A DNA stretch of 64,000 bases. It comes from a virus (taxonomy: Duplodnaviria; Caudoviricetes). The position numbers and the translations under genes are program-made. The notes under the pieces are model-generated. The model did not search any database. It was not told the DNA's origin and was given only the letters and a program-made list of their open reading frames with translations. Where the stretch lies: positions 1 to 64,000 of the IMG/VR virus record IMGVR_UViG_3300002835_000027. One strand, written 5' to 3'. Positions 8,440 to 59,519 of the stretch are shown piece after piece; within the stretch, counting starts at the first letter, position 1, and each line of letters opens with the position of its first letter.

Positions 8440-8447
8440 TATAAATA
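8440..8447 (+). promoter_or_regulatory. Late promoter TATAAATA upstream of terminase genes
   Basis: Exact T4 late consensus 16 nt before the ATG at 8463. Confidence 0.6.
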
Positions 8448-8876: not shown

Positions 8877-10438
8877 GAAGAACCCAGCTTAAAATGCCGG
8901 GTGAGTTAAGTGAATATTCTGCGGAATCGGTTCAAAATTTAATTCAATGCGCAACGGACCCAATATTTTTCATATTAAATTTTTGTAAAATTACCCACCC
9001 GGCAAGAGGTATCGTTCCTTTTGAATTATATGAGTTCCAGCGAGAGATGGTGGAGTCATTCGCTTTTAATCATAATACTATTGTTTGTGCTAGTCGACAA
9101 GTAGGTAAATCACAAACATCATGTGCGTTCCTTTTATGGTATGCTATCTTTCATAAAAACAAAGAAATATTAATTGTATCTAATAAAGCAAAGAATGCTA
9201 AAGATATGGTTAATCGTATTGTGTTTATGTATGAAAATTTACCCAATTGGATAAAACCAGCTATTAATCCAACAAATTGGAATAAATTAGAAATTTCATT
9301 TGAAAATGGTAGTAGAATAGTATCAGAAAGTACGACTACGAATAGTGGTCGTGGTATGTCTATATCATTATTATTTTGTGATGAATTTGCTTTCATAAAT
9401 CCAACTATAGCAGAAGAATTTTGGACTAGTATACGCCCCACATTATCAACTGGCGGTAAATCGATTATAGCTAGTACACCAAATGGCGATGATAATTTAT
9501 ATGCCGAATTATGGCGCGGTGCGTCAGCTGGAACTAACGCATTTAATGCATTATTTGTTCCTTGGGATTCAGTTCCCGGTAGAGATGACGAATTTAGAAA
9601 AAAAGAAATCGCGATTATCGGACCTGAAAAATTTGCCCAGGAATATGAATGTGAGTTTATTTCAAATGATCCATTACTATTTAGTTCTAGATACGTAATT
9701 ACATATAAAACCGATCCATTACCAGAACCTGATGCTAGAGGTGTTGTTTGGTTCGATACTATAGACAGTAATAAAACTTATTTAATCGCCGTAGATCCAG
9801 CAACCGGTAGCGGTAGTGATTATACAGTCATTGTTTTATATAACTTCCCAGATCTACAGCAAATTGCCGAGTTTAGAAGCAATGTAATGTCATCACCCCT
9901 TGCTTATAATATTATTAAGTATATGCTTAAATTATTACAATCAAAAGGAGTTGAAAATGTTTACTGGAGCTTAGAAAATAATGGCGTAGGTGAAGGGATG
10001 TTAAGTCTACAATCAATTGATGAAAATCCAGTCGAAATCGGCGAATTACTTTCAGATAAAGGAAAACGGAGATTAGGATTTAATACCGGTAAAAATAAAC
10101 TTACTTTATGTATCACTTTTAAACAGATGTTCGAATCCGGTCGCATTAAAATCAAATCTAAAAATACAATAAACGAGATGAAAAACTTTGTTCGTAAAAA
10201 TGGATCATATTCCGCTAGGTCTGGGTCTACTGATGATACAATATCAGCTCATCTTATATTAATGCGCATGTTAGATGAATTAGTTCGATATGAAGATGAT
10301 GCATATGCACTAATGTATGAATCCGACTTCATCAATGAATTTAATGATGATACAAATTATATCGAACCTACACCAATAGTAACTAGTTCCGGTGATAGTG
10401 AAATGGACGTTTGGAGTTGGTACGAAAATCATCGATAA
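8873..10438 (+). CDS. terL: Terminase large subunit (gp17-like)
   Basis: Walker A SRQVGKS, Walker B LLFCDEFAF, STPNG, FAQEYECEF, nuclease VDPATG...SDY and TDD; uninterrupted. Confidence 0.97.
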   Translation: MRRTQLKMPGELSEYSAESVQNLIQCATDPIFFILNFCKITHPARGIVPFELYEFQREMVESFAFNHNTIVCASRQVGKSQTSCAFLLWYAIFHKNKEILIVSNKAKNAKDMVNRIVFMYENLPNWIKPAINPTNWNKLEISFENGSRIVSESTTTNSGRGMSISLLFCDEFAFINPTIAEEFWTSIRPTLSTGGKSIIASTPNGDDNLYAELWRGASAGTNAFNALFVPWDSVPGRDDEFRKKEIAIIGPEKFAQEYECEFISNDPLLFSSRYVITYKTDPLPEPDARGVVWFDTIDSNKTYLIAVDPATGSGSDYTVIVLYNFPDLQQIAEFRSNVMSSPLAYNIIKYMLKLLQSKGVENVYWSLENNGVGEGMLSLQSIDENPVEIGELLSDKGKRRLGFNTGKNKLTLCITFKQMFESGRIKIKSKNTINEMKNFVRKNGSYSARSGSTDDTISAHLILMRMLDELVRYEDDAYALMYESDFINEFNDDTNYIEPTPIVTSSGDSEMDVWSWYENHR

Positions 10439-21086: not shown

Positions 21087-21115
21087 ATTATACTACTTTT
21101 TAAATAAAATATCAA
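21087..21115 (-). promoter_or_regulatory. Sigma70-type promoter for queC
   Basis: TTGATA-17-TATAAT on the minus strand. Confidence 0.75.
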
Positions 21116-21588: not shown

Positions 21589-21617
21589 TTGAATATTTAA
21601 GTAGTATGAGTTATAAT
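21589..21617 (+). promoter_or_regulatory. Sigma70-type promoter for queE
   Basis: TTGAAT-17-TATAAT. Confidence 0.7.
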
Positions 21618-27348: not shown

Positions 27349-27377
27349 ATTATAACATAATTATAGCAAATAGTCAA
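27349..27377 (-). promoter_or_regulatory. Sigma70-type promoter for the mini-DnaE gene
   Basis: TTGACT-17-TATAAT with extended TG. Confidence 0.8.
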
Positions 27378-28210: not shown

Positions 28211-28243
28211 ATTGGTATAAATATCCGTTTTTATGAGGTAATT

Positions 28244-39272: not shown

Positions 39273-40316
39273 TTAAAACATATATGTAATTGATGTAAGT
39301 ATAGTATTTATATCTCGATGTATAGGATCGGTATAATTAAAATTCCAATTGTTAGTTATCGTTCGATGATATTCTATTGCTACAGTTATATTATTAAAAG
39401 TATCAGCTACACCCACAAATGCATCGAATAATTTAGTAGTATCGTTTTCTCGATATCCATATGATTCACCAATATAAGTTTTCCATTTATCTATAAAATT
39501 ATAAGATACGGTCGAATATTGGCCTACTACATTAGTTGATGCATTTAGTTGTCTATACGTAACTTCACTCTGAATTTTAAAATCGTCAATTATTTGCTGA
39601 ATACCAAAAAAATGCATATGTTGATAGGTATTTAAATCAATAATTTGTTTAAAAAATGGAGGGTTGATATTATTTACTGTACCTTCCGAATCGGTATATG
39701 AATATCGTATAACAGTATCATCGTAACATATTTTAGCATTAAATCCGAATGCTATATTACCTTTTACTATAAATGAAAAACCGGGATCATAAACATCAAT
39801 TAATGGGTTATCTATTACTGGTTTACCGACGTACGCTTTTAATTTTAAATGCAATCTATCATTAACCTGAATATTATCATTTATTGCTAACCCGTCTACT
39901 ATATCTGGTAAATTTAAATATCGTCTAGGATCGTAAGTGCTTAATGGTAATAAAATAGAGCCATTTATAAATGAATTAGTTGTCGAAGTATTAATAAATC
40001 CGACTGGAATAGTCATGCGTCCAAAATTTAATTCGAATTGATTGGTATCGGTCGTATATATCGCCGTCGATATCATTAATCGTCGCAACGGATTATATGG
40101 ATTATTAGAAACTTGGGATGATAAAATCCACGAATTATTTGAAATATCTCCGTTTATTACTACACTAAAATCATTATTGCTAGGATTGATATCGCTAGTA
40201 GCATAGCCGTAATTAACAAAACCGGACATATTAATAAGATAATCTTTATAGTTATAGGTTATACCATAACTATTAACTGATAAACTAATCAGTAATATTA
40301 ATAATTTGTACTTCAT
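39273..40316 (-). CDS. Outer-membrane beta-barrel (porin-like) protein
   Basis: Signal peptide; SGFVNYGYA; GRMTIP; alternating hydrophobic strands; terminal TSITYMF beta-signal. Confidence 0.72.
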   Translation of the reverse strand: MKYKLLILLISLSVNSYGITYNYKDYLINMSGFVNYGYATSDINPSNNDFSVVINGDISNNSWILSSQVSNNPYNPLRRLMISTAIYTTDTNQFELNFGRMTIPVGFINTSTTNSFINGSILLPLSTYDPRRYLNLPDIVDGLAINDNIQVNDRLHLKLKAYVGKPVIDNPLIDVYDPGFSFIVKGNIAFGFNAKICYDDTVIRYSYTDSEGTVNNINPPFFKQIIDLNTYQHMHFFGIQQIIDDFKIQSEVTYRQLNASTNVVGQYSTVSYNFIDKWKTYIGESYGYRENDTTKLFDAFVGVADTFNNITVAIEYHRTITNNWNFNYTDPIHRDINTILTSITYMF

Positions 40317-48206: not shown

Positions 48207-48299
48207 GTAAAACTCCATATAAAATAATAATGTCATTATTTATAACGGTATTTTTTGGGTGAAAAATAAATAGAATATTACAATTAACGGTGAACTTAT

Positions 48300-50597: not shown

Positions 50598-53195
50598 TTA
50601 AAAATTAAATAAATCTTCTGCTTGTAATATCTGCATAGTCGGTGTTTTTAAATTGATTGCTTTTAAAATATTATCTAATGGTTTATCTACTAATCTATTA
50701 ATTTGCTGATCTTTATCTATTTTAGGAATAAAATCATCAATAAACCATTGTGGTAAATGTTCTAAATCAGTCGGTATCGCAATCGATTTAAATTTACCTA
50801 TTGCTCGTTTTAAATAATAAACTTTAATTTTAGATCCAGAACCAATCGGTTGATTTTCCGTATCCCCATACTGAACTAAATTAATATTAAAAAATATACT
50901 TGCTGCTGCGCCACCAGGAATATTAGCCTTACTACCTAAGTTTTCGTATAATTCAGTATACTCCTCTACTTTATTAACGCCTTTTGGTAATCCCATTTCT
51001 AATAAATTTTTAAAATCATTTAACTCTTCTTTGTATGCGACAATATCTTTTGCAATATCATTCCAATCTTCACCCAACAATAAACGTTTAATAAAACTAG
51101 TTAATTTTGCAGCTACTGGTTTAGGTAACGTAGTTTTTTTAATATCTAAACCCATCGTTTTCATTTTATCGCTAGCTTTACCTTCATTATCAACTACATG
51201 TATAGTATAACGTTTTTTCTCAACAAATATACTACTATCGCCGACAATTTCACGCCCGCATTTAATCATTTCATCAAATACTGGTTGACATAAAAAAGCT
51301 TGTTTCATAAATGGTTGATATGATTTATTAACTTGGTCTGCTACTGCATCAGCTATTTGAATCGCTTCGTCTTTATCGTTAGTAGGAACTACGAAATATG
51401 TACTATCAGTATCGCCGTAAATAACCGTTTCTGATTGGAATTTACCATTAAATATAGGACCAGTTAATGAAATATCATAAGTTAATGTATTCGGGTGATA
51501 ATATTCTTTACGTTCTGCAGTTAATAAATCTAATACACTTGATCTATCATTATGAGTAGAATTCGCCATATATTCTTCATCAAATGGATTATTAGCTAAG
51601 TATTTTTTACTATGTTCCTTATTTAATTCATCGATAACTTTGTTATTTTCATATAATGGAAAATCAATATTATAATTACCTTCGATTAATTCATTTACTT
51701 TACGACATTGATGTCTTAAAATCATTCGACCAGTACCAGTTACGGATTCGCCAGATTCTAACCTAAAGAACCTAAAGTTATAATTACTTAGACATCCATA
51801 AGTTGAATTTAATTTAATTTTAAAGATAAATTGAAATCGATCATAATGTTTAGCTTCTTCTAAGTATTTTGTATATAACGCCTGATCCTTACCTTTATAT
51901 TGTTCTGCTAATTTTTCACACTCTTTCTTTTTAGCTTGATATATTTTTCGCTGCGTATACCAAGTACCTAATAATGACGGGATAACACCCTCAAATTCTT
52001 GAGTATAAACCGTTCCGTATCCACTAACCGACCATTTCTTTTCTATAAAGAAATCAATCCACTCCGTAGTTAATCTAGTTTCATACGAACCATCTTCATA
52101 TCTTAATGTTAATTCGCATTCTTTATATTCAGCAATACAAGCCCAATCTTTAATATTATTAACGAATTGCCCGCGAATAGTTTCCGGGCTAATATTGATA
52201 GCTCGAATAGCCGATGGATATAATGAATTAATATCAATTGATGCAATCCATCTATGTAGTCCTCGTTGCGGAAATAAAACGTAAGCTCCTTGAATCGAGC
52301 CATCCGCAGTATCCCATCTATCAGGAACTCGCTTGTTTAATTCGTAATGACAATAGTTGATAATAGCATTATCAACCATTCGAACAGTTCCGAAAATATG
52401 AGTAAATTGATTAGTACTAGTATGAATCATATCATTAGCTAATCGGATATATTTTAATTTAGATTCGAATCCGGCTAGAATTTCGGTATCGCGAACGTTA
52501 TATCTTAAAAAATGATTAAAATCATTTACGTATAATTGTTCTAATGTTCCAGGATATGATAATTTCGCTAAATGCGGTAAAACATCTTCAGATATAACTT
52601 CTAATTTATAACTTTGCCTTTCAACAACTTCGAATTTTTTAAATAATTCGAGATAATCTAATGATACCCTACCGCTTAATTCTACTTGTAAATTTTCTTT
52701 ACCTTTAACGAAAACCGATCTATATATTGGAATATTCGCTTGAGGAAAACTCATTCTTTTTAAATGATGTTCACCTAAAACCATTTCAATTCGGCGGCAA
52801 ATATACGGATCATCGAAGCCCGAACTATTCCATCCGGATAATAAACTAACGTCTTCTATTTCATCTAAAAATGACAATAACATATCGGATTCATTTTTAA
52901 AAAAAATAATCTCAGTTAATTCAGATAACGAATTATCAAAATTATTTAAATCAAAACCTGGGGGTGGGACGGCAAATACTTTTGATTTAGTAAGCCATTC
53001 TTTATGCATCGATATTGCATTAATTGGGGCGTATGGATTTAATGGACTTGAAAAACCCGTCGGACCACTATATTCATATTTTGAATTAGTATACGAAATC
53101 CATTTTTTAGTTTGTTCGTCGTATATTTCAATTTGTTCTTGTTGTTTTTTAGGTAATTGTCGAATTTCACCCAAAGTGACTTCTAAGTTATCCAT
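50598..53195 (-). CDS. Family B DNA polymerase, large C-terminal part (ExoII, ExoIII, polymerase domain)
   Basis: SGWNSSGFDDPY, YNVRDTE, SIDINSLYPS, KIKLNSTYG, YGDTDS, KKRY; lacks the N-terminal domain and the ExoI DxE. Confidence 0.96.
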   Translation of the reverse strand: MDNLEVTLGEIRQLPKKQQEQIEIYDEQTKKWISYTNSKYEYSGPTGFSSPLNPYAPINAISMHKEWLTKSKVFAVPPPGFDLNNFDNSLSELTEIIFFKNESDMLLSFLDEIEDVSLLSGWNSSGFDDPYICRRIEMVLGEHHLKRMSFPQANIPIYRSVFVKGKENLQVELSGRVSLDYLELFKKFEVVERQSYKLEVISEDVLPHLAKLSYPGTLEQLYVNDFNHFLRYNVRDTEILAGFESKLKYIRLANDMIHTSTNQFTHIFGTVRMVDNAIINYCHYELNKRVPDRWDTADGSIQGAYVLFPQRGLHRWIASIDINSLYPSAIRAINISPETIRGQFVNNIKDWACIAEYKECELTLRYEDGSYETRLTTEWIDFFIEKKWSVSGYGTVYTQEFEGVIPSLLGTWYTQRKIYQAKKKECEKLAEQYKGKDQALYTKYLEEAKHYDRFQFIFKIKLNSTYGCLSNYNFRFFRLESGESVTGTGRMILRHQCRKVNELIEGNYNIDFPLYENNKVIDELNKEHSKKYLANNPFDEEYMANSTHNDRSSVLDLLTAERKEYYHPNTLTYDISLTGPIFNGKFQSETVIYGDTDSTYFVVPTNDKDEAIQIADAVADQVNKSYQPFMKQAFLCQPVFDEMIKCGREIVGDSSIFVEKKRYTIHVVDNEGKASDKMKTMGLDIKKTTLPKPVAAKLTSFIKRLLLGEDWNDIAKDIVAYKEELNDFKNLLEMGLPKGVNKVEEYTELYENLGSKANIPGGAAASIFFNINLVQYGDTENQPIGSGSKIKVYYLKRAIGKFKSIAIPTDLEHLPQWFIDDFIPKIDKDQQINRLVDKPLDNILKAINLKTPTMQILQAEDLFNF

Positions 53196-53230
53196 AATAT
53201 ATTTTTAATTAGGTAAATTTAATTTATTAT

Positions 53231-53259
53231 ATTATACTTGAAATATTGATTAAAATCAA
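53231..53259 (-). promoter_or_regulatory. Sigma70-type promoter for the large polymerase fragment
   Basis: TTGATT-17-TATAAT on the minus strand. Confidence 0.75.
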
Positions 53260-53265
53260 TTATTT

Positions 53266-53862
53266 TTAAACTGATGCTAATATTCTAGTTGCGTATGCAT
53301 TGCCGAATTTACAGGTCGTAGTTAACCAGGGGAATGAATAAAAATTAAATACTTCTTGTGTCGCTGTTGTTCTGATAGTAAGATACGGTCTATTCGGTGC
53401 ATTAGTTGGCGTATCTGGAGAGAACATTGTAGTATTAGTTCTAGTAAAAGATGCTGGATTAGGAACCGAAACATTAGATTTATATCCTTCACTATCCGGA
53501 GTAACTAACATTGGAGATAAACCAATACCACTTATCGGAACATCATAAGTAACATTTAATTTTAGATCTTTGTATATTTTAATATTATTAATGAAGTTTG
53601 CAACTTCATTCGCAGATTGTTGATTTTCAAAAACGGCGTATCGCCATATTTGATTATTAATATAACTATTAACACTACTATCAGAATATTCCGCCCATAC
53701 TACATATAAAACTGAATTTCGAACTATAGTGCCTTCATACGTCATATTATAATTATTACCAGTATAATCAATTACCATTGATGATAAAGTATTAGTATAC
53801 GTATAACCGGGCGGAGTATACACTAGATTTTGTGATATATTAGCCCTCAAATAAGTCGCCAT
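53266..53862 (-). CDS. Hypothetical protein between the polymerase halves
   Basis: GGAG RBS; ATAAATA at 53893-53899; Tyr/Thr/Asn-rich; no nuclease motif recognised. Confidence 0.7.
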   Translation of the reverse strand: MATYLRANISQNLVYTPPGYTYTNTLSSMVIDYTGNNYNMTYEGTIVRNSVLYVVWAEYSDSSVNSYINNQIWRYAVFENQQSANEVANFINNIKIYKDLKLNVTYDVPISGIGLSPMLVTPDSEGYKSNVSVPNPASFTRTNTTMFSPDTPTNAPNRPYLTIRTTATQEVFNFYSFPWLTTTCKFGNAYATRILASV

Positions 53863-53895
53863 ACTACTCCGCCGATTGATTTAAATAAAAATTAT

Positions 53896-54177
53896 TTATC
53901 GTTTCACTGGTTGGGATAATGCGTAAGCTTTAATATAATCCATAGGGTCATGATATGCATCATTAGTCCACCCCAATGCGGCGTATGCTTCGAATCTAAT
54001 AGCGTGGTGTTCATCTGCTAGTGCATCTTTAGTAAAACCTAATTTGCGATATGCATTCAATCGAACTACTGGATCAGAATCTTGTAATGATTTCGTTGGG
54101 TATCCATTTCTATTATAATGTTTTAATTTATTTTGACGGCCTGGAAATGTATCATATTCTTTCGGATCTAAAATCAT
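53896..54177 (-). CDS. Small LRV/HEAT-like repeat protein between the polymerase halves
   Basis: Three repeats G[YFW]...[SA]L.D....[VI]R..AY..L; AGGA RBS. Confidence 0.65.
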   Translation of the reverse strand: MILDPKEYDTFPGRQNKLKHYNRNGYPTKSLQDSDPVVRLNAYRKLGFTKDALADEHHAIRFEAYAALGWTNDAYHDPMDYIKAYALSQPVKR

Positions 54178-54189
54178 TTTATTTTCCTA

Positions 54190-54609
54190 TTATTTTGGTT
54201 TCATTCTTATTTTAACAACAGTTTCATCGGGGAACGTCTGCGATTTATAATCAACCTCAATATCATATAACATAATATTAAGATCGGGCGCTGGTTGATT
54301 ATAATAATACTTTGATAATACTTTAGTATCTACGCCTATATCCGATTCGTATAATTTTTCACCTCGTTCTTCGATAAGCATTTTTTTAGCTGCTCGAAAA
54401 TCTCGAAGATTATCGAATTCGTATTTCTTTAATTTATCATTAAAAATACTGGTATGTTCACCTTCTTCATCATTCTTCATAAAAAATTCGAATATACCCG
54501 GATATTTTTTTAGTACGTGTTTATGATCGATACATTCCCAAACATAAACTTCATCACCTTCAACGAAACCTTTATCATTTCGTTTCATCGTTGCTGATAT
54601 ATAGCCCAT
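54190..54609 (-). CDS. Family B DNA polymerase, N-terminal fragment with ExoI motif
   Basis: YISA, VYVWE, SIF..KL, KLYESDI....KVLSKYY...PAPDLNIMLYDIEVD. Confidence 0.88.
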   Translation of the reverse strand: MGYISATMKRNDKGFVEGDEVYVWECIDHKHVLKKYPGIFEFFMKNDEEGEHTSIFNDKLKKYEFDNLRDFRAAKKMLIEERGEKLYESDIGVDTKVLSKYYYNQPAPDLNIMLYDIEVDYKSQTFPDETVVKIRMKPK

Positions 54610-54611
54610 AC

Positions 54612-54806
54612 TTAATCCTCTATTTCGTTATCTACTTTTGGTATTTTTTTAATACTGGATAATGGGCGACTAATACATAATCGATAATCCCCATTATCCA
54701 ATATTGCTTGTATTATACCATTATTTCGATAAGTAGATGAAATAACTTTAAACCTGCCGGATATACCAGTAACTATAACATTAACGCCAGCTTTTAAATA
54801 TTCCAT
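54612..54806 (-). CDS. Hypothetical protein (small SH3-like beta protein)
   Basis: AGGT RBS; tightly packed in the operon. Confidence 0.55.
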   Translation of the reverse strand: MEYLKAGVNVIVTGISGRFKVISSTYRNNGIIQAILDNGDYRLCISRPLSSIKKIPKVDNEIED

Positions 54807-55144: not shown

Positions 55145-55173
55145 ATTATAATACATTTATAATTAAAGATCAA
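55145..55173 (-). promoter_or_regulatory. Sigma70-type promoter for the dsbA-polN operon
   Basis: TTGATC-17-TATAAT on the minus strand. Confidence 0.75.
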
Positions 55174-55175
55174 TC

Positions 55176-58100
55176 TTACGGTCTACCAAAACCAGTAGCA
55201 TCTCGCTTACTATGAGTTCTAGTAGCTACTCCACCACCCGTTGTATTCCCCTCTACTGAATTAAAGGTACCGTCTCCATTATCTTTAACTACTATACCAC
55301 AATGTCCGATATTACCATCATTGTGGGTATAGAAAACAATATCGCCTGGTTGTAATTGGGTACTATTATTAATCCATTTACCTTGAGATTTAAATTGTGA
55401 GGCCATAGCCGAAGTTAGAGGAGTCATTGGAACTGCAGCACCGGCTCGTTTAGCACACCACATAACAAACGCAGCGCACCATGCTTTATGATTGGTACCT
55501 GCTTCAGCTCCGTATTTCGTATCATTATTTGGACCTTCTTTAAATCCAACTTCACCTAAAGCGATTTGAACTAATTTACTATTACCGCCCCCAGATGTCG
55601 GTTGTACTACGTCTGGATTAGGTCCGTCGGTTACGGTACCACCATATTGATGATACAATTTAATTATAGTTGATATTTTTGAACTCGGCATCGATGACCA
55701 TTGATTACCTAATGCATTTGATTTATGTGCAACTGCAGTGTTTATCTTACCGGCAATAACCAAATCAAGAATACCGATACTTTTTAATATTAATTTACAT
55801 ACCTTATCTTGACTAGCTTTACTAAAATCAGATTGCTTATGATCATTAAATGTAGTCCATACTATTTGATATCTACCTGAAGCTGTTGATTTTCTACCAT
55901 CTTTATAAACGAATGGTTGATATTTTAATGGATAACTTGGATCAAACGGATGATGGCTATAATCATCGAATGTTCTACGTCCACTTATCATAACTAATTG
56001 ATTATATCCATCATCGCCAGCTAAATCAGTTTCTAATTTACCTATAGTTTTCATAAATGCGGTTAAATTATCATTACTTTCTGGTGTACTATTTGGATCT
56101 CCGTTACTACCATTACCCAAGCCGCCATTACCACCACCGCCACCCCCACCAGCTCCTCCTTTTTTAGCCGGTTGATTACTATCTTGCATACCGTCTGAAG
56201 CTGGAACTGGACATAATGTTAATATTTGAGTAAATTCACCTTTACTAAATTTACTATCAACTTGATAAACATAATATGAATCTTGATACCATCCCGGCGT
56301 ACTATAATAATTTTCGGCAGATGCATCAGAACCGCCTTGCATATATGACGGTTTTGGAACTCGAACGTTCACTTTACAAGTCGGCATGGATTCCGAAGTT
56401 CCGTATTTGTTATTATGATCTTCGGTTACTTTTTTTGATTCTTCTGCTGATTTACTAGTTCCGTCGGCATTAACGTACGTATCATTAGGTGGCGTATAAC
56501 CAGCTAATAATAATGGATTACCGATTATTTTTAATGAATGTTTTTCTGCGGTTTGACCAATAATATCAGAAATTACTTTTCTAGATTGAAACAATGTTTG
56601 TGGATCCATTGATCCAGATCCAGCTCTAGTTGGATCCATTACTGGAGGTGATATCGGCGTATTAGCTAATCTATTAGATGGAACCGTACCTATCGTCGGA
56701 TTTATTGCTCCGGTTTGTTTTTTATCACCGTCCGTTTCTGCCGGATCAGTTATATCTTTTACATTATCATTTAATTGCTTATTAGTTATAACAGATTGTG
56801 GATGATAATATTTAAAAGCGTGACCTGAACTCCAAGAACCATTATAACTCATATCAAATTGCAATATATCTAAATTTTTACCAGTATAGATATAATCATA
56901 TTCTAAAACTGATGGTAATTTAGTATCATCAGTTGATACTTGATTATTATTTTGAGTATTGCTTACAGCTGGGTCTTCTTTACTTTGAGCTGCTACTTTA
57001 TCGTCGATTGATGCTTCGGTTTCCATAACCGTTTTTTCAATAGAATAAATTAACGTTCTAGCTTGTTTATCTTTATTAAAATACGTATATGATTTAATAA
57101 CTGGTTTATAAAAAACTTTATCGCCCGATATATTATATTCTTCTCGGATTTTTGGACATAAACTAATAATTTTTTGTATTGAATCTAATATATGTTCTCC
57201 GATCGAAGTATTTAATATTATATAATCGACTTCTTCATTTGCAACGTCGGTTTTATTATTTTTATTATTAGCTGGCGTTACTTTACCGCTATGTTTACCA
57301 CCACCTTGTTCCATTCTGGCGACGGCGTTAGTCATAGCCTCGTTAATTTTTGGATCTGTAAAGTCTACATTCTTATCATCTAATGAAACGCCAGTTTGTT
57401 TCGATAGAAATTGAGCATAAGCTTCTGGATTATTTTTACCGTCACCTTTTGGTGCATATCTATTAGTAAACGCCCTTAAACTATGAATACCATGTTTAGA
57501 TGAATATAAACCAATTTGTCTACTTAATGCCTTTCTTCCTTCTTCTGGGGTTGCATAAGATTGAAATCCTTTACCGTTAGTATTTCTTATATTACCGATA
57601 TTATTATTCGATGGGATATTATATCCGGCCATATCAGTTAATGATGGGCTTTTTGCAGTGGAATTCGCGGCATTAGGAACTTTATCCGGCGGTGTTGTAT
57701 TATTAGTTTTTGGTGATGTTTTTGGAGGAGCTACTCGCTGATCATCACTAACTTCTAAAACATATTCATTTGATTTATAAGCTTCGTCTAATTTAATTTC
57801 GCATAATTGATTTGGTTGGACCAATGAAGCTGATTTATTTTCTTCTGATCGTTTATTAACCGACTCTTGTAATTTTTGTAATGCGTCGGATAATAATGCG
57901 GTTGATTTATATGAAACCCCACCAGTATTCATCGATGCGGAACTATTAGCTGCGTCGTTAAATAAACTAGCGCATTTTAATGAATAACTAGTTCCCTTAT
58001 TTGATAAGGTCATCGACATAGTAGTTATTTCAAATGGGATTACATTTATACTATCAATTACGTGGGGTTGATTATTATTATAATCATCTAAATAACCGAC

Positions 58101-58562
58101 AAAAATAATTTTTAATCCGAAAGTTAAACTTTCAATTGCCATTGATATATCAGCGCCGTCACTAAGTCCGGCAGATGATTGTGCAGCTATTAATAATATA
58201 GCTGGGAAATCCATAGTAAACGGTTCTAAAATGGACATATTTAGAAGCGTCATAACTTCTAAACTAAAACCTAAGCTTTTCTCGGGTGTATTTTGAAATA
58301 CGTGAGAAATCTCCAAATCCACAATACTAAAATCGGCATCTTGCATTGAATTGTAAATAACCGAATATTTGTTCCCGGCTGATGTTGTTTTTGCAGTATA
58401 TCTATCTGCTGCATTATCTGGGTGTGAATATCTACTTAAATCAGATTTATCTTCTGTATTATCGATATCAGCGAATGTGGTTTCAACTGATGGGCCGGCT
58501 AATAAAATAAAATGATATGAGTAGCTTCTATATTTGTGGAGTGGATTTGGTGTAGCTGACAT
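55176..58562 (-). CDS. Baseplate hub-like protein with three peptidoglycan-hydrolase domains
   Basis: NPLHKYRSYSY start; lysozyme-like NNIGNIR..F.TPEEG..RYAP..NNP.AY; lambda-type lysozyme AFMKTIG.LE..GYN..STASGRYQI; CHAP WCAAFV.W..GHCGIV..EGN. Confidence 0.82.
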   Translation of the reverse strand: MSATPNPLHKYRSYSYHFILLAGPSVETTFADIDNTEDKSDLSRYSHPDNAADRYTAKTTSAGNKYSVIYNSMQDADFSIVDLEISHVFQNTPEKSLGFSLEVMTLLNMSILEPFTMDFPAILLIAAQSSAGLSDGADISMAIESLTFGLKIIFVGYLDDYNNNQPHVIDSINVIPFEITTMSMTLSNKGTSYSLKCASLFNDAANSSASMNTGGVSYKSTALLSDALQKLQESVNKRSEENKSASLVQPNQLCEIKLDEAYKSNEYVLEVSDDQRVAPPKTSPKTNNTTPPDKVPNAANSTAKSPSLTDMAGYNIPSNNNIGNIRNTNGKGFQSYATPEEGRKALSRQIGLYSSKHGIHSLRAFTNRYAPKGDGKNNPEAYAQFLSKQTGVSLDDKNVDFTDPKINEAMTNAVARMEQGGGKHSGKVTPANNKNNKTDVANEEVDYIILNTSIGEHILDSIQKIISLCPKIREEYNISGDKVFYKPVIKSYTYFNKDKQARTLIYSIEKTVMETEASIDDKVAAQSKEDPAVSNTQNNNQVSTDDTKLPSVLEYDYIYTGKNLDILQFDMSYNGSWSSGHAFKYYHPQSVITNKQLNDNVKDITDPAETDGDKKQTGAINPTIGTVPSNRLANTPISPPVMDPTRAGSGSMDPQTLFQSRKVISDIIGQTAEKHSLKIIGNPLLLAGYTPPNDTYVNADGTSKSAEESKKVTEDHNNKYGTSESMPTCKVNVRVPKPSYMQGGSDASAENYYSTPGWYQDSYYVYQVDSKFSKGEFTQILTLCPVPASDGMQDSNQPAKKGGAGGGGGGGNGGLGNGSNGDPNSTPESNDNLTAFMKTIGKLETDLAGDDGYNQLVMISGRRTFDDYSHHPFDPSYPLKYQPFVYKDGRKSTASGRYQIVWTTFNDHKQSDFSKASQDKVCKLILKSIGILDLVIAGKINTAVAHKSNALGNQWSSMPSSKISTIIKLYHQYGGTVTDGPNPDVVQPTSGGGNSKLVQIALGEVGFKEGPNNDTKYGAEAGTNHKAWCAAFVMWCAKRAGAAVPMTPLTSAMASQFKSQGKWINNSTQLQPGDIVFYTHNDGNIGHCGIVVKDNGDGTFNSVEGNTTGGGVATRTHSKRDATGFGRP

Positions 58563-59490: not shown

Positions 59491-59519
59491 TTGATTATTT
59501 ATGTTAAATCCGGTATAAT
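59491..59519 (+). promoter_or_regulatory. Sigma70-type promoter of gp55 overlapping an antisense late promoter
   Basis: TTGATT (59491-59496)-17-TATAAT (59514-59519); ATAAATA on the minus strand at 59496-59502. Confidence 0.7.

Follow-up and report, generated by a model that had tools for sequence, protein, structure and literature searches.

A family-B DNA polymerase of a freshwater giant phage encoded by two genes, with ExoI separated from ExoII and ExoIII

The polymerase locus of a freshwater giant phage raises the question of how a replicative enzyme can be encoded by a gene cut next to its proofreading motifs. In the window, the 64,000-nt stretch of phage DNA analyzed here, the initial annotation had read a family-B DNA polymerase (PolB) as two genes broken inside the proofreading active site. 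It further proposed that proofreading needs a heterodimer and that separate promoters could set the ratio of proofreading to non-proofreading enzyme. To answer the question, we considered whether the break is real, where it lies, what caused it, and how the two products might work together.

On the minus strand, the small polymerase ORF is followed by ORF93, ORF198, and the large polymerase ORF, and the two ORFs between the halves are unrelated to the polymerase, as initially annotated (Table 1). The halves are separated by 994 nt and lie in different reading frames, and the non-coding DNA of the gap is limited to stretches of 12, 33, and 70 nt. Of the 22 listed runs, 20 (12 of them possibly the source) contained 55% or more of the words sampled from positions 52900-54700. 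Moreover, contigs with 0 differences spanned both the 53195/53266 and the 54177/54190 junctions in 4/4 metagenome runs examined, and no joined, unsplit form was seen among the contigs of these four runs. Assemblies of lake runs with dates from 2016 to 2024 also yielded the identical sequence. Because the exact contigs over both junctions come from four separate runs, the split is not an assembly artefact, and the two-piece gene stands as annotated.

Table 1. Positions of the features of the split polymerase locus in the window
Feature	Position	Strand	Basis or remark
Promoter-like site TTGATC-17-TATAAT, second site	55145..55173	-	upstream of ORF92 (55097-54819)
PolB small subunit gene, 139 aa	54190..54609	-	N-terminal domain, ExoI strand, insertion-module strand 1
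ExoI motif DIEV (D116, E118)	54253..54264	-	invariant in 6/6 stand-alone small subunits
C-terminal tail KSQTFPDETVVKIRMKPK, net charge +3	54193..54246	-	N-terminal part of the insertion module, to the hairpin turn
ORF93, small HEAT-repeat-like protein, AGGA ribosome-binding site	53896..54177	-	Pfam HEAT_2 E 5.4e-5, fails cut-off; Atlas 0.91
ORF198, orphan protein, GGAG ribosome-binding site	53266..53862	-	Pfam, PHROG, and relative searches
Spacer before the large ORF, 70 nt	53196..53265	-	no Shine-Dalgarno word
Sigma-70-like site TTGATT-17-TATAAT	53231..53259	-	likely early promoter
PolB large subunit gene, 865 aa	50598..53195	-	rest of the module, ExoII, ExoIII, second half of the N-terminal domain, palm, fingers, thumb
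N-terminal head of the large subunit, 46 aa	53058..53195	-	C-terminal part of the insertion module; first 30 residues net charge -3
ExoII region GWNSSGFDDPY	52803..52835	-	alignments, structure match, motif location
ExoIII YNVRD	52488..52502	-	alignments, structure match, motif location
Polymerase motif C YGDTDS	51402..51419	-	uninterrupted; inteins at this point in relatives

Based on profile and structure searches, the large ORF belongs to the T4/RB69 gp43 type of family-B polymerases (Pfam DNA_pol_B, E 1.9e-33; PHROG 262, E 1e-153; T4/RB69 structures, E 9e-47). Its matches begin only at position 124 of 242 in the Pfam exonuclease profile and at position 124 of 856 in PHROG 262, and when aligned to the unsplit 882-aa polymerase of XacN1 it picks up at GFSSP, so the residues missing after ExoI resume where the annotation had placed them. 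The small ORF is similar to the N-termini of giant-phage DNA polymerases in 80 phage records, all below 60% identity, with at least 80% of the query covered in 69 of them. It ends 18 residues past DIEVDY with TAA followed by TAG, and it weakly covers positions 50-85 of 242 of the Pfam exonuclease profile (E 0.028, fails the cut-off). A search of its profile against solved structures gave no match by sequence; its fold is therefore assigned from the homology to N-termini of phage polymerases and from the complex model described below.

The 3'-5' exonuclease of these enzymes is defined by the motifs ExoI (DxE), ExoII (NxxxFD), and ExoIII (YxxxD). All three are present in the window but are distributed over two chains, ExoI in the small ORF and the other two in the large ORF, in agreement with the initial assignment. 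The large ORF also contains motifs A (DINSLYPS), B (KIKLNSTYG), and C. These six motifs are intact and invariant in the alignments, and judged by their sequences both halves look functional. Thus, whereas a family-B polymerase is typically a single polypeptide, this one is encoded by two ORFs. The polymerase genes of relatives are heavily invaded by selfish elements, with inteins in loci L028, L006, and L030 and a true split intein at motif C in L031.

The break falls in the turn of the first beta-hairpin of an insertion module of ~60 aa that follows ExoI. The distance from DIEV to GFSS is 74 aa in eight of nine unsplit relatives (P0010-P0015, L030, L031, and L036), in all of which the module is contiguous; the loop of P0010 exceeds that of the other unsplit forms by 8 aa. 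In the window, a tail of 24 aa and a head of 50 aa add up to the same 74 aa, and the halves, collinear on one strand, together equal the unsplit protein. The module is missing from 29 of the 35 loci inspected and from XacN1 and RaK2. When the module was modeled by itself with AF2 (8 sequences, mean pLDDT 76.3), strands were formed at residues 16-21 and 27-31, and the break is located in the turn between them. In other words, the claim of a break within the proofreading active site holds insofar as ExoI is parted from ExoII and ExoIII, but the cut itself lies outside the core, in a lineage-specific insertion.

The same loop is also split in loci L028/L029 and L006, and the split architecture is retained in at least four lineages at 34-98% identity. 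Stand-alone small subunits account for four of the seven matches (9 candidates), at 60-98% identity, and each terminates 18-22 residues past DIEVxY; a 98%-identical relative differs by a conservative change and an in-frame one-codon indel. Similarly, the matching large subunits P0008 and P0009 begin with the head. In L028/L029 and L006, an HNH homing-endonuclease gene fills the gap. The 332-aa ORF of L028 and a 170-aa ORF of L006 match phrog_655 (homing endonuclease; E 8.7e-24 and 4.6e-32, respectively), one gap ORF of L006 matches the N-terminal half of this L028 protein and the other its C-terminal half (E 7e-15 and 3e-12), and the N-terminal 140 aa of the L028 ORF have HNH or homing-endonuclease matches in 1026 phage records. 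In the tree, split L028 stands beside unsplit L030 and L031 with branch lengths of 0.014-0.05, and the split label requires four changes across 23 rows. Collectively, an HNH gene in the same loop and close unsplit relatives identify the locus as a gene in pieces of the homing-endonuclease type, and the cause of the split is an insertion of the mobile-element type.

The gap of the window is occupied differently. Neither ORF93 nor ORF198 is similar to the endonuclease of the relatives, and ORF93 was ruled out as a nuclease. No endonuclease gene or remnant was found in the gap or elsewhere in the 133-kb record, and no flanking repeats delimiting an inserted element were found at the gap. Only distant relatives of ORF198 were found, among them a 607-aa protein that has four fn3 domains and is matched at its N-terminus. 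The composition of both ORFs is native, within 2 SD of 59 ORFs, and hence gives no sign of recent import. Because the gap contains no endonuclease, we infer an endonuclease-driven origin in the lineage of the window from its relatives only.

To understand how the products might combine, the small and large chains were modeled as a complex. The model scored 0.84, against 0.00 for the best of three controls; in calibration, 58 of 80 solved complexes attained this mark, as did 2 of 110 mismatched pairs, although custom alignments were used here and these calibration counts apply only roughly. The runs share at least 96% of their contacts, with a partner pLDDT of at least 88 and 285-287 contacts between the chains. 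Residues 111-118 of the small subunit are predicted to lie against residues 58-65 and 116-120 of the large subunit, where the ExoI-bearing strand is placed between two strands, and tail residues 122-137 are predicted to lie against head residues 2-12, 21-25, and 32-49. Since the fold to which the two halves belong has solved structures, this outcome indicates likeness rather than proof of binding. The polymerase gene being cut in two at an endonuclease-prone spot, the enzyme most likely consists of two interlocked proteins; the model thus favors the heterodimer already proposed, most likely an obligate and tightly interlocked non-covalent one, whose halves would assemble into active enzyme without splicing.

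Taken as a whole, we favor, with a probability of about 0.8, a two-gene family-B replicative polymerase that arose by an endonuclease-type split within the module, followed by non-covalent assembly of two chains. An ancestor of the clade would have gained the strand-rich module in the exonuclease domain, inserted after the ExoI strand and before the one that follows, and DNA would later have been inserted into the codons of its first hairpin turn, giving the upstream part a stop codon and the downstream part a start. In the relatives, the inserted DNA is the free-standing HNH gene; in the lineage of the window, the gap holds the HEAT-like ORF, the orphan ORF, and the spacer with its likely early promoter, without an endonuclease gene. 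The 139-aa product comprises ExoI together with half of the N-terminal domain and strand 1 of the module, and the 865-aa product all else. The ExoI strand would enter between two strands of the exonuclease sheet of the large subunit, the two halves of the N-terminal domain would pack against each other, and the module hairpin would be rebuilt by the basic tail and the acidic head. With such a three-way assembly, both chains would be required for proofreading and probably also for the enzyme as a whole to fold stably. As the small subunit would supply part of the N-terminal domain as well as an inserted strand, the large ORF alone is likelier to be misfolded than to act as an exonuclease-free polymerase.

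Genes in pieces of the homing-endonuclease type are known, and the PolB site is new among them. As described in the available part of Crona et al. (2011, PMC3045599), the nrdA-a/mobE/nrdA-b genes of Aeromonas phage Aeh1 form such a 'gene in pieces': a free-standing HNH endonuclease gene interrupts an essential, replication-related enzyme close to the active site, both halves run collinearly on the same strand, neither RNA nor protein splicing occurs, and a basic C-terminal tail is opposed to an acidic N-terminal tail at the break. Additionally, the downstream half overlaps the 3' end of the endonuclease gene in L028 (17 nt) and L006 (50 nt), with no spacer, an arrangement described as typical in the available part of Dassa et al. 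(2009, PMC2677866). In contrast, the Aeh1 enzyme is a ribonucleotide reductase, its tails are, in the same portion of PMC3045599, new sequence from the insertion whereas ours are halves of a module contiguous in unsplit relatives, and the gap of the window contains, in place of the endonuclease, a pair of unrelated ORFs plus a spacer bearing a promoter-like site.

Other two-chain polymerases are broken elsewhere. Split gp43A/gp43B genes of T4-like Aeromonas phages (Petrov and Karam, via the part of PMC2677866 available) also yield a family-B polymerase from two genes, in one case with a GIY-YIG homing endonuclease gene between them. However, that break divides the exonuclease/N-terminal part from the palm and fingers and keeps ExoI, ExoII, and ExoIII together in a single chain; the halves of this type, represented by PHROGs 2062 and 1918, meet near residue 425-432 of the large ORF, whereas the break here precedes its residue 1, far upstream as the annotation had recognized. 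For PhiKZ, the available part of a preprint (bioRxiv 2026, PMC13648687) describes gp82 and gp50 as a giant-phage family-B polymerase in two chains that form a stable 1:1 complex, with a break within a lineage-specific insertion domain and halves that co-fold. There, however, the insertion is in the palm, a single chain carries the N-terminal domain together with the entire exonuclease, and no endonuclease is named in that part. Finally, 'fractured' polymerase genes with split inteins in giant and environmental phages (available parts of PMC2677866 and, for phage MIJ3, PMC6892783; locus L031) likewise comprise a pair of ORFs, which in many cases flank an HNH endonuclease gene, but are described there as carrying intein blocks A, B, F, and G, a Ser/Cys start, and a His-Asn plus nucleophile end; these blocks are seen in the true inteins of the relatives' polymerase genes, L031 among them, and are absent from the tail and head of the window.

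Two variants concern the origin of the module, and we consider each of them rather unlikely, though far from negligible. The ~60-aa module could be a domesticated piece of a selfish element, either a dead intein N-terminal lobe or the tails of an endonuclease cassette, which now serves as a built-in clasp. Alternatively, it could have arrived with the mobile element as tail, endonuclease gene, and head, the contiguous modules being scars of endonuclease loss and fusion. L006, which has module and endonuclease, is sister with support 100 to the module-less L018; L028 and L031 are 42% identical in the module but 79% and 94% in its flanks; the same endonuclease family occupies the same loop in two polymerases only 41-47% identical; the longer P0010 loop is as expected of a fused tail and head; and the +3 tail and -3 head resemble the charged tails reported for Aeh1 in the available part of PMC3045599. 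Against such an arrival, independent fusions should not yield exactly 74 aa in eight of nine unsplit modules, the core clade has the module in 11/11 members and the split in only 3/11, and the module of unsplit L030 and L031 is conserved like its flanks (73% vs 75% identity).

A separate question is whether the split has been put to use, with a large subunit that alone would be an active non-proofreading polymerase and two promoters that set its complementation by the small subunit, and hence the mutation rate. ExoI is indeed physically apart from ExoII and ExoIII, the annotated TTGATT-17-TATAAT word is present directly before the large ORF, and the second site probably heads an upstream operon that includes the small subunit. 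Promoter-like sites in general are not enriched (34 vs 38.2 +/- 6.1 in shuffles); for the stricter word TTGA-N18-20-TATAAT, the window has 10 occurrences against 5.65 +/- 2.36 expected, and 6 of these 10 sites, including that of the large ORF, lie 30-65 nt upstream of a same-strand ORF start. No RNA fold stands out in the 70-nt spacer (z -0.57). However, the small subunit is no detachable exonuclease module, as it contains half of the N-terminal domain and a strand that the complex model places inside the sheet of the large subunit. Furthermore, the overlaps in L028 and L006 indicate that separate promoter control is not conserved, and with close relatives unsplit, the split looks neutral rather than adaptive. 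Consequently, a promoter-set proofreading ratio finds no support, and tunable fidelity of this kind is very improbable.

Similarly improbable is a non-functional remnant, with replication left to the host or to another polymerase encoded in the unsequenced genome half. The record is ~45% complete, and the invasion of the relatives' genes by selfish elements would fit decay. Nevertheless, both ORFs are intact with every catalytic motif kept, the architecture persists in the lineages described above, the sequence is identical across the lake runs of 2016 to 2024, and the 133 kb hold no other PolB or PolA (PF00136 at 1 locus, PF00476 at 0). Least plausible of all is restoration of one chain, by removal of the 994-nt gap as an intron or by tail and head acting as a very small ligating split intein: introns and inteins are frequent in phage polymerase genes, as in the loci noted above, and inteins are the best, though weak, hits in fold searches with the module (Foldseek Prp8 intein, E 0.55, TM 0.43; VIA Z 3.7, rmsd 5.1, 62 aligned; 11 of 36 VIA rows inteins by title), but Rfam gave no match in 52800-54700 at E up to 1, including no group I or II intron core, two ORFs, each with a ribosome-binding site, take up the gap, the module has about half the size of an intein splicing (HINT) domain or less and stays contiguous within unsplit polymerases, eight aligned modules have no conserved Cys/Ser/Thr at the start and no His-Asn at the end, hhalign against real inteins of the same genes gave a probability of 0.8%, and a Pfam scan of the contiguous modules of L031, L030, and L036 at E up to 10 found no intein family.

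A gene cut in pieces by an endonuclease-type insertion, with its products assembled non-covalently, thus remains the preferred reading. If the module is in addition a domesticated piece of a selfish element, its first hairpin, which would open harmlessly, would be a safe landing pad on which an essential polymerase survives repeated endonuclease invasion. Module and endonuclease might then travel between polymerase lineages as one cassette, as the comparison of L006 with L018 suggests.

The window comes from a 133-kb IMG/VR virus record, approximately 45% complete and with a G+C content of approximately 30%; its polymerase has its relatives among giant phages, including XacN1, RaK2, and 121Q. 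The family-B DNA polymerase is encoded in two separate ORFs, between which lie ORF93 and ORF198 (table). The small ORF resembles the N-termini of phage DNA polymerases, with matches in 80 phage records, each at less than 60% identity, and stops 18 residues past the ExoI sequence DIEVDY; its profile had no match in the PDB. The large ORF contains all of ExoII, ExoIII, and motifs A, B, and C and matches DNA_pol_B (Pfam, E 1.9e-33) and the T4/RB69 structures (E 9e-47). Its matches to the Pfam exonuclease domain and to PHROG 262 start at profile positions 124 of 242 and 124 of 856, respectively. In an alignment with the unsplit 882-aa enzyme of XacN1, the small ORF extends from the N-terminal end up to and including ExoI, and the large ORF picks up at GFSSP. 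Collectively, the ORF coordinates, the XacN1 alignment, and the motif positions confirm the two-ORF layout described in the initial annotation. Relative to XacN1, an insertion of ~60–80 aa, common to the clade, precedes motif C (51420–51660; large ORF residues ~513–592); in P0010, an unsplit relative, this region (residues ~654–735) is without counterpart in many relatives. Upstream of the polymerase operon lies a 1128-aa ORF (55176–58562, minus strand) with a glycine-rich stretch, the C-terminal part of which, judged by eye, resembles a cell-wall hydrolase.

Coordinates of the polymerase-region ORFs and of promoter-like words in the window
Feature	Position	Strand	Length
Small ORF	54609-54190	-	139 aa
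ORF93	54177-53896	-	93 aa
ORF198	53862-53266	-	198 aa
Large ORF	53195-50598	-	865 aa
TTGA-N18-20-TATAAT near ORF start	21087-21115	-	
TTGA-N18-20-TATAAT near ORF start	21589-21617	+	
TTGA-N18-20-TATAAT near ORF start	27349-27377	-	
TTGA-N18-20-TATAAT near ORF start	55145-55173	-	
TTGA-N18-20-TATAAT near ORF start	59491-59519	+	
TTGA-N18-20-TATAAT before large ORF	53231-53259		
TATAAATA (example)	8440-8447	+	
TATAAATA (example)	28216-28223	+	
TATAAATA (example)	39305-39312	-	
TATAAATA (example)	48237-48244	-	

At least 55% of the sampled words of 52900–54700 were present in 20 of the 22 listed runs (freshwater and lake metagenomes, 2016 to 2024), of which 12 may be the record's own source. In four of four runs, zero-difference contigs span two junctions, large ORF/ORF198 and ORF93/small ORF, and no contig of these runs joins the polymerase halves across the gap. 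The two-piece layout therefore holds in all four runs, and an assembly artefact is ruled out. Contigs of all four runs end or start at 53878–54037, inside ORF93, where strain microdiversity or a short repeat may break the assembly graphs. No near-identical DNA was found among isolated phages.

A word search limited to residues 1–62 of the large ORF gave nine proteins from 12 candidates. P0008 and P0009 begin with the same head as the large ORF, whereas P0010–P0015 are unsplit enzymes of 1010–1472 aa, in which the tail of the small ORF and the head of the large ORF form one unbroken insertion of ~60 aa (the module) between ExoI and GFSSP; the ninth, P0016, is without it. The span from DIEV to GFSS is 74 aa in eight of nine unsplit forms, and the two parts in the window, of 24 and 50 residues, add up to the same 74; therefore, no protein residues were gained or lost at the break. 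Among 35 related loci, the module occurs in five (two split, three contiguous), 29 have a 4-residue linker or similar, and one has another insertion at the same loop. This count omits L010, L021, L034, L029, L043, and L046–L048 as duplicates or near-duplicates by hit patterns, L025 and L050, whose contigs end before ExoI, and the isolates L016 and L017, which were read separately. In a tblastn search of a 50,697-record collection of isolated phages with large-ORF residues 1–110, the head was not found, residues 1–32 being covered in none of 14 records. The loop after ExoI seems to be an insertion hot spot. At L049 (7061–9790), a different insertion of ~70 aa occupies this loop directly after ExoI.

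The AF2 model of the module alone (eight sequences, mean pLDDT 76.3) has four short strands and short helices, and the break sits in the turn that links strand 1 to strand 2. Because the module is contiguous in relatives and the break falls in a modelled hairpin turn, the break lies beside the active-site strand rather than inside it, on a surface hairpin of an accessory module. The proposal that the polymerase is broken inside the proofreading active site is thus not borne out, the turn lying next to the ExoI strand.

Stand-alone small subunits also occur in four further protein clusters (60–98% identity). In loci L028/L029 (small subunit 60% identical to that of the window), a 332-aa ORF breaks up this same loop; L006 (34% identical) has two ORFs there, 170 and 163 aa long, which correspond to the N- and C-terminal portions of the L028 protein. 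PHROG 655 (homing endonuclease) is matched by the 332-aa ORF (E 8.7e-24) and by the 170-aa ORF (E 4.6e-32), and the nuclease part resembles HNH/homing endonucleases in 1026 phage records, mostly T4-like. Moreover, the end of the endonuclease gene lies within the large ORF, the two sharing 17 nt in L028 and 50 nt in L006; such an overlap of the downstream half is typical of endonuclease-fractured genes, according to Dassa et al. 2009 (PMC2677866). In a tree of residues 197–600 (23 rows, quick search, SH-aLRT support), split L028 groups with unsplit L030 and L031 on branches of 0.014–0.05, the window falls in a group (support 99) with P0009, which is split, and P0010, which is unsplit, and the split label requires four changes. 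Since split and unsplit forms coexist among close kin, the distribution, as read from sequence, bears the signature of a mobile insertion. The proteins P0002 and P0009 are encoded on one 55-kb contig. In L006 (6001–11184), a single polymerase gene is invaded at three places: by the HNH endonuclease (two ORFs) in the ExoI module, by a free LAGLIDADG ORF further down (9052–9708, Pfam E 4.6e-33), and by a 376-aa intein at YGD|TDS.

Regarding the origin of the module, the order favoured by the sequence comparison is that a contiguous module would have come first and the insertion later, because the unsplit modules share the 74-aa length (eight of nine) and all 11 of the 11 core-clade members carry the module. 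Both observations weigh against the alternative that the module travels with the endonuclease, of which there are hints: L006 is sister (support 100) to the module-free L018, L028 and L031 are 42% identical in the module vs 79% and 94% in its flanks, and the loop of P0010 is 8 aa longer than in other unsplit forms. Fold searches with the module returned nothing significant. Their weak top rows are inteins aligned from the first residues (Foldseek E 0.55; VIA Z 3.7, rmsd 5.1, 62 aligned), and 11 of the 36 VIA rows are inteins by title. Sequence profiles gave no support to an intein likeness, and the module profile found nothing in the PDB but a Kelch-like hairpin word, summed over repeats. An intein-like fold of the module may accordingly be taken as a lead only.

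Neither the gap in the window nor the whole 133-kb record contains an endonuclease gene. ORF93 is HEAT-repeat-like (Pfam match below cut-off; Atlas 0.91). ORF198 is an orphan: a search over 1.84 billion representatives gave four matches, itself included, and the sole clear distant relative is a 607-aa protein, matched at its N-terminus, that carries four fn3 domains. It has no above-cut-off Pfam family and no PHROG, and its models are uninformative (AF2 pLDDT 30.7, unusable; Atlas pLDDT 0.29, with no usable feature match). Neither ORF has relatives in IMG/VR or paralogues within the record. Each has a ribosome-binding site, their composition is native (within 2 SD of 59 ORFs), and the gap is flanked by no repeats beyond short AT-rich matches. 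ORF93 and ORF198 may have replaced an endonuclease gene or may themselves have caused the split.

On the best reading, the two polypeptides would assemble non-covalently. An alternative genetic code was dropped, given that TAA and then TAG close the small ORF, the halves lie in different frames, and table 11 leaves ORFs of up to 2713 aa open. Splicing of the module as an intein is unlikely, every sequence hallmark of inteins being absent. Furthermore, there is neither signal nor room for an intron, because Rfam gave no match at E up to 1 over the gap region and the non-coding spaces measure only 12, 33, and 70 nt. True inteins, one of them a true split intein, occur elsewhere in the polymerase genes of relatives. 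In L031 (7001–9619 and 9638–10579), a natural split intein divides the polymerase at motif C; the two ORFs are 18 nt apart without an endonuclease gene between them, the first running from YGDTD into an intein-like N-part and the intein part of the second ending ILVHN before STYF. In L030 (7783–9143), the exonuclease domain carries an in-frame insertion of ~450 aa at P0010 residue 269, with a sub-threshold match to Intein_splicing (Pfam, E 3.4e-6, 27.4 bits vs a cut-off of 35.8).

The modelled complex of the small subunit with large residues 1–420 scored 0.84 and the best of three controls 0.00, which favours the heterodimer proposed in the initial annotation. The mark is reached by 58 of 80 solved complexes vs 2 of 110 mismatched pairs, counts that hold roughly because our own alignments were supplied, and a pass denotes likeness rather than binding, since each chain is one half of a fold for which many structures have been solved. 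At least 96% of contacts are common to the runs, and the partner pLDDT is at least 88. In the model, the ExoI strand (small residues 111–118) lies between large residues 58–65 and 116–120, the tail (122–137) rests on the head (2–12, 21–25, and 32–49), and the N-terminal domain touches residues 217–293. Because the small chain gives a strand within the sheet and half a domain, we infer that it would form an obligate heterodimer rather than serve as an optional proofreading subunit. The tail carries a charge of +3 and the first 30 head residues −3, which recalls the oppositely charged tails of split Aeh1 NrdA (PMC3045599).

Ahead of the large ORF, TTGATT-17-TATAAT is found at 53259–53231. Loose promoter-like matches are not commoner in the window than in shuffles (34 vs 38.2 ± 6.1), and the stricter TTGA-N18-20-TATAAT occurs 10 times vs 5.65 ± 2.36 expected, a count reached by 7 of 100 shuffles. 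Six of the ten lie 30–65 nt upstream of a same-strand ORF start, among them the site ahead of the large ORF and one preceding ORF92, the head of the operon containing the small subunit. These six are probably a class of early promoters, and a promoter before the large ORF is plausible. It is not conserved in split relatives, and no link to fidelity control emerged; the idea that separate promoters set the proofreading ratio thus found no support. No RNA fold stands out in the spacer before the large ORF (z −0.57), and the absence of a Shine-Dalgarno sequence there is uninformative, since 23 of 51 ORFs are without one. The word TATAAATA, which we take to be the T4-type late-promoter word, is rare in the window (9 vs 36.6 ± 5.6 in shuffles, a strong depletion), and several copies lie directly upstream of ORF starts. 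This depletion and placement suggest T4-like late transcription in the window phage.

Among known systems, the Aeh1 nrdA-a/mobE/nrdA-b gene in pieces is the closest in mechanism to the split in the window. Known split family-B polymerases are broken elsewhere: T4-like gp43A/B further downstream, as initially stated, with the PHROG halves meeting near large ORF residue 425–432 (literature via Dassa 2009); PhiKZ gp82/gp50 within a palm insertion (PMC13648687); MIJ3 at a split intein accompanied by an HNH gene (PMC6892783); and the archaeal split family-B polymerases likewise at another position (cited in Dassa 2009). The literature covered, with most subscription journals and supplements outside its scope, described no polymerase broken between ExoI and ExoII; the splits it contained all lie at intein sites or in the palm or fingers. 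The polymerase described here is the first we could find with a two-metal proofreading site shared between two chains. Natural split family-B polymerases form a short list, to which this one contributes a new break point, and it provides a natural test of how a polymerase tolerates a cut beside a catalytic strand. L028 (split) and L030/L031 (unsplit) are close relatives that can be compared as a matched set to study endonuclease homing and what it costs, and the break site may serve for engineering two-piece polymerases. Finally, if the module were a mobile-element relic, selfish DNA would have left a structural domain in a core replication enzyme.
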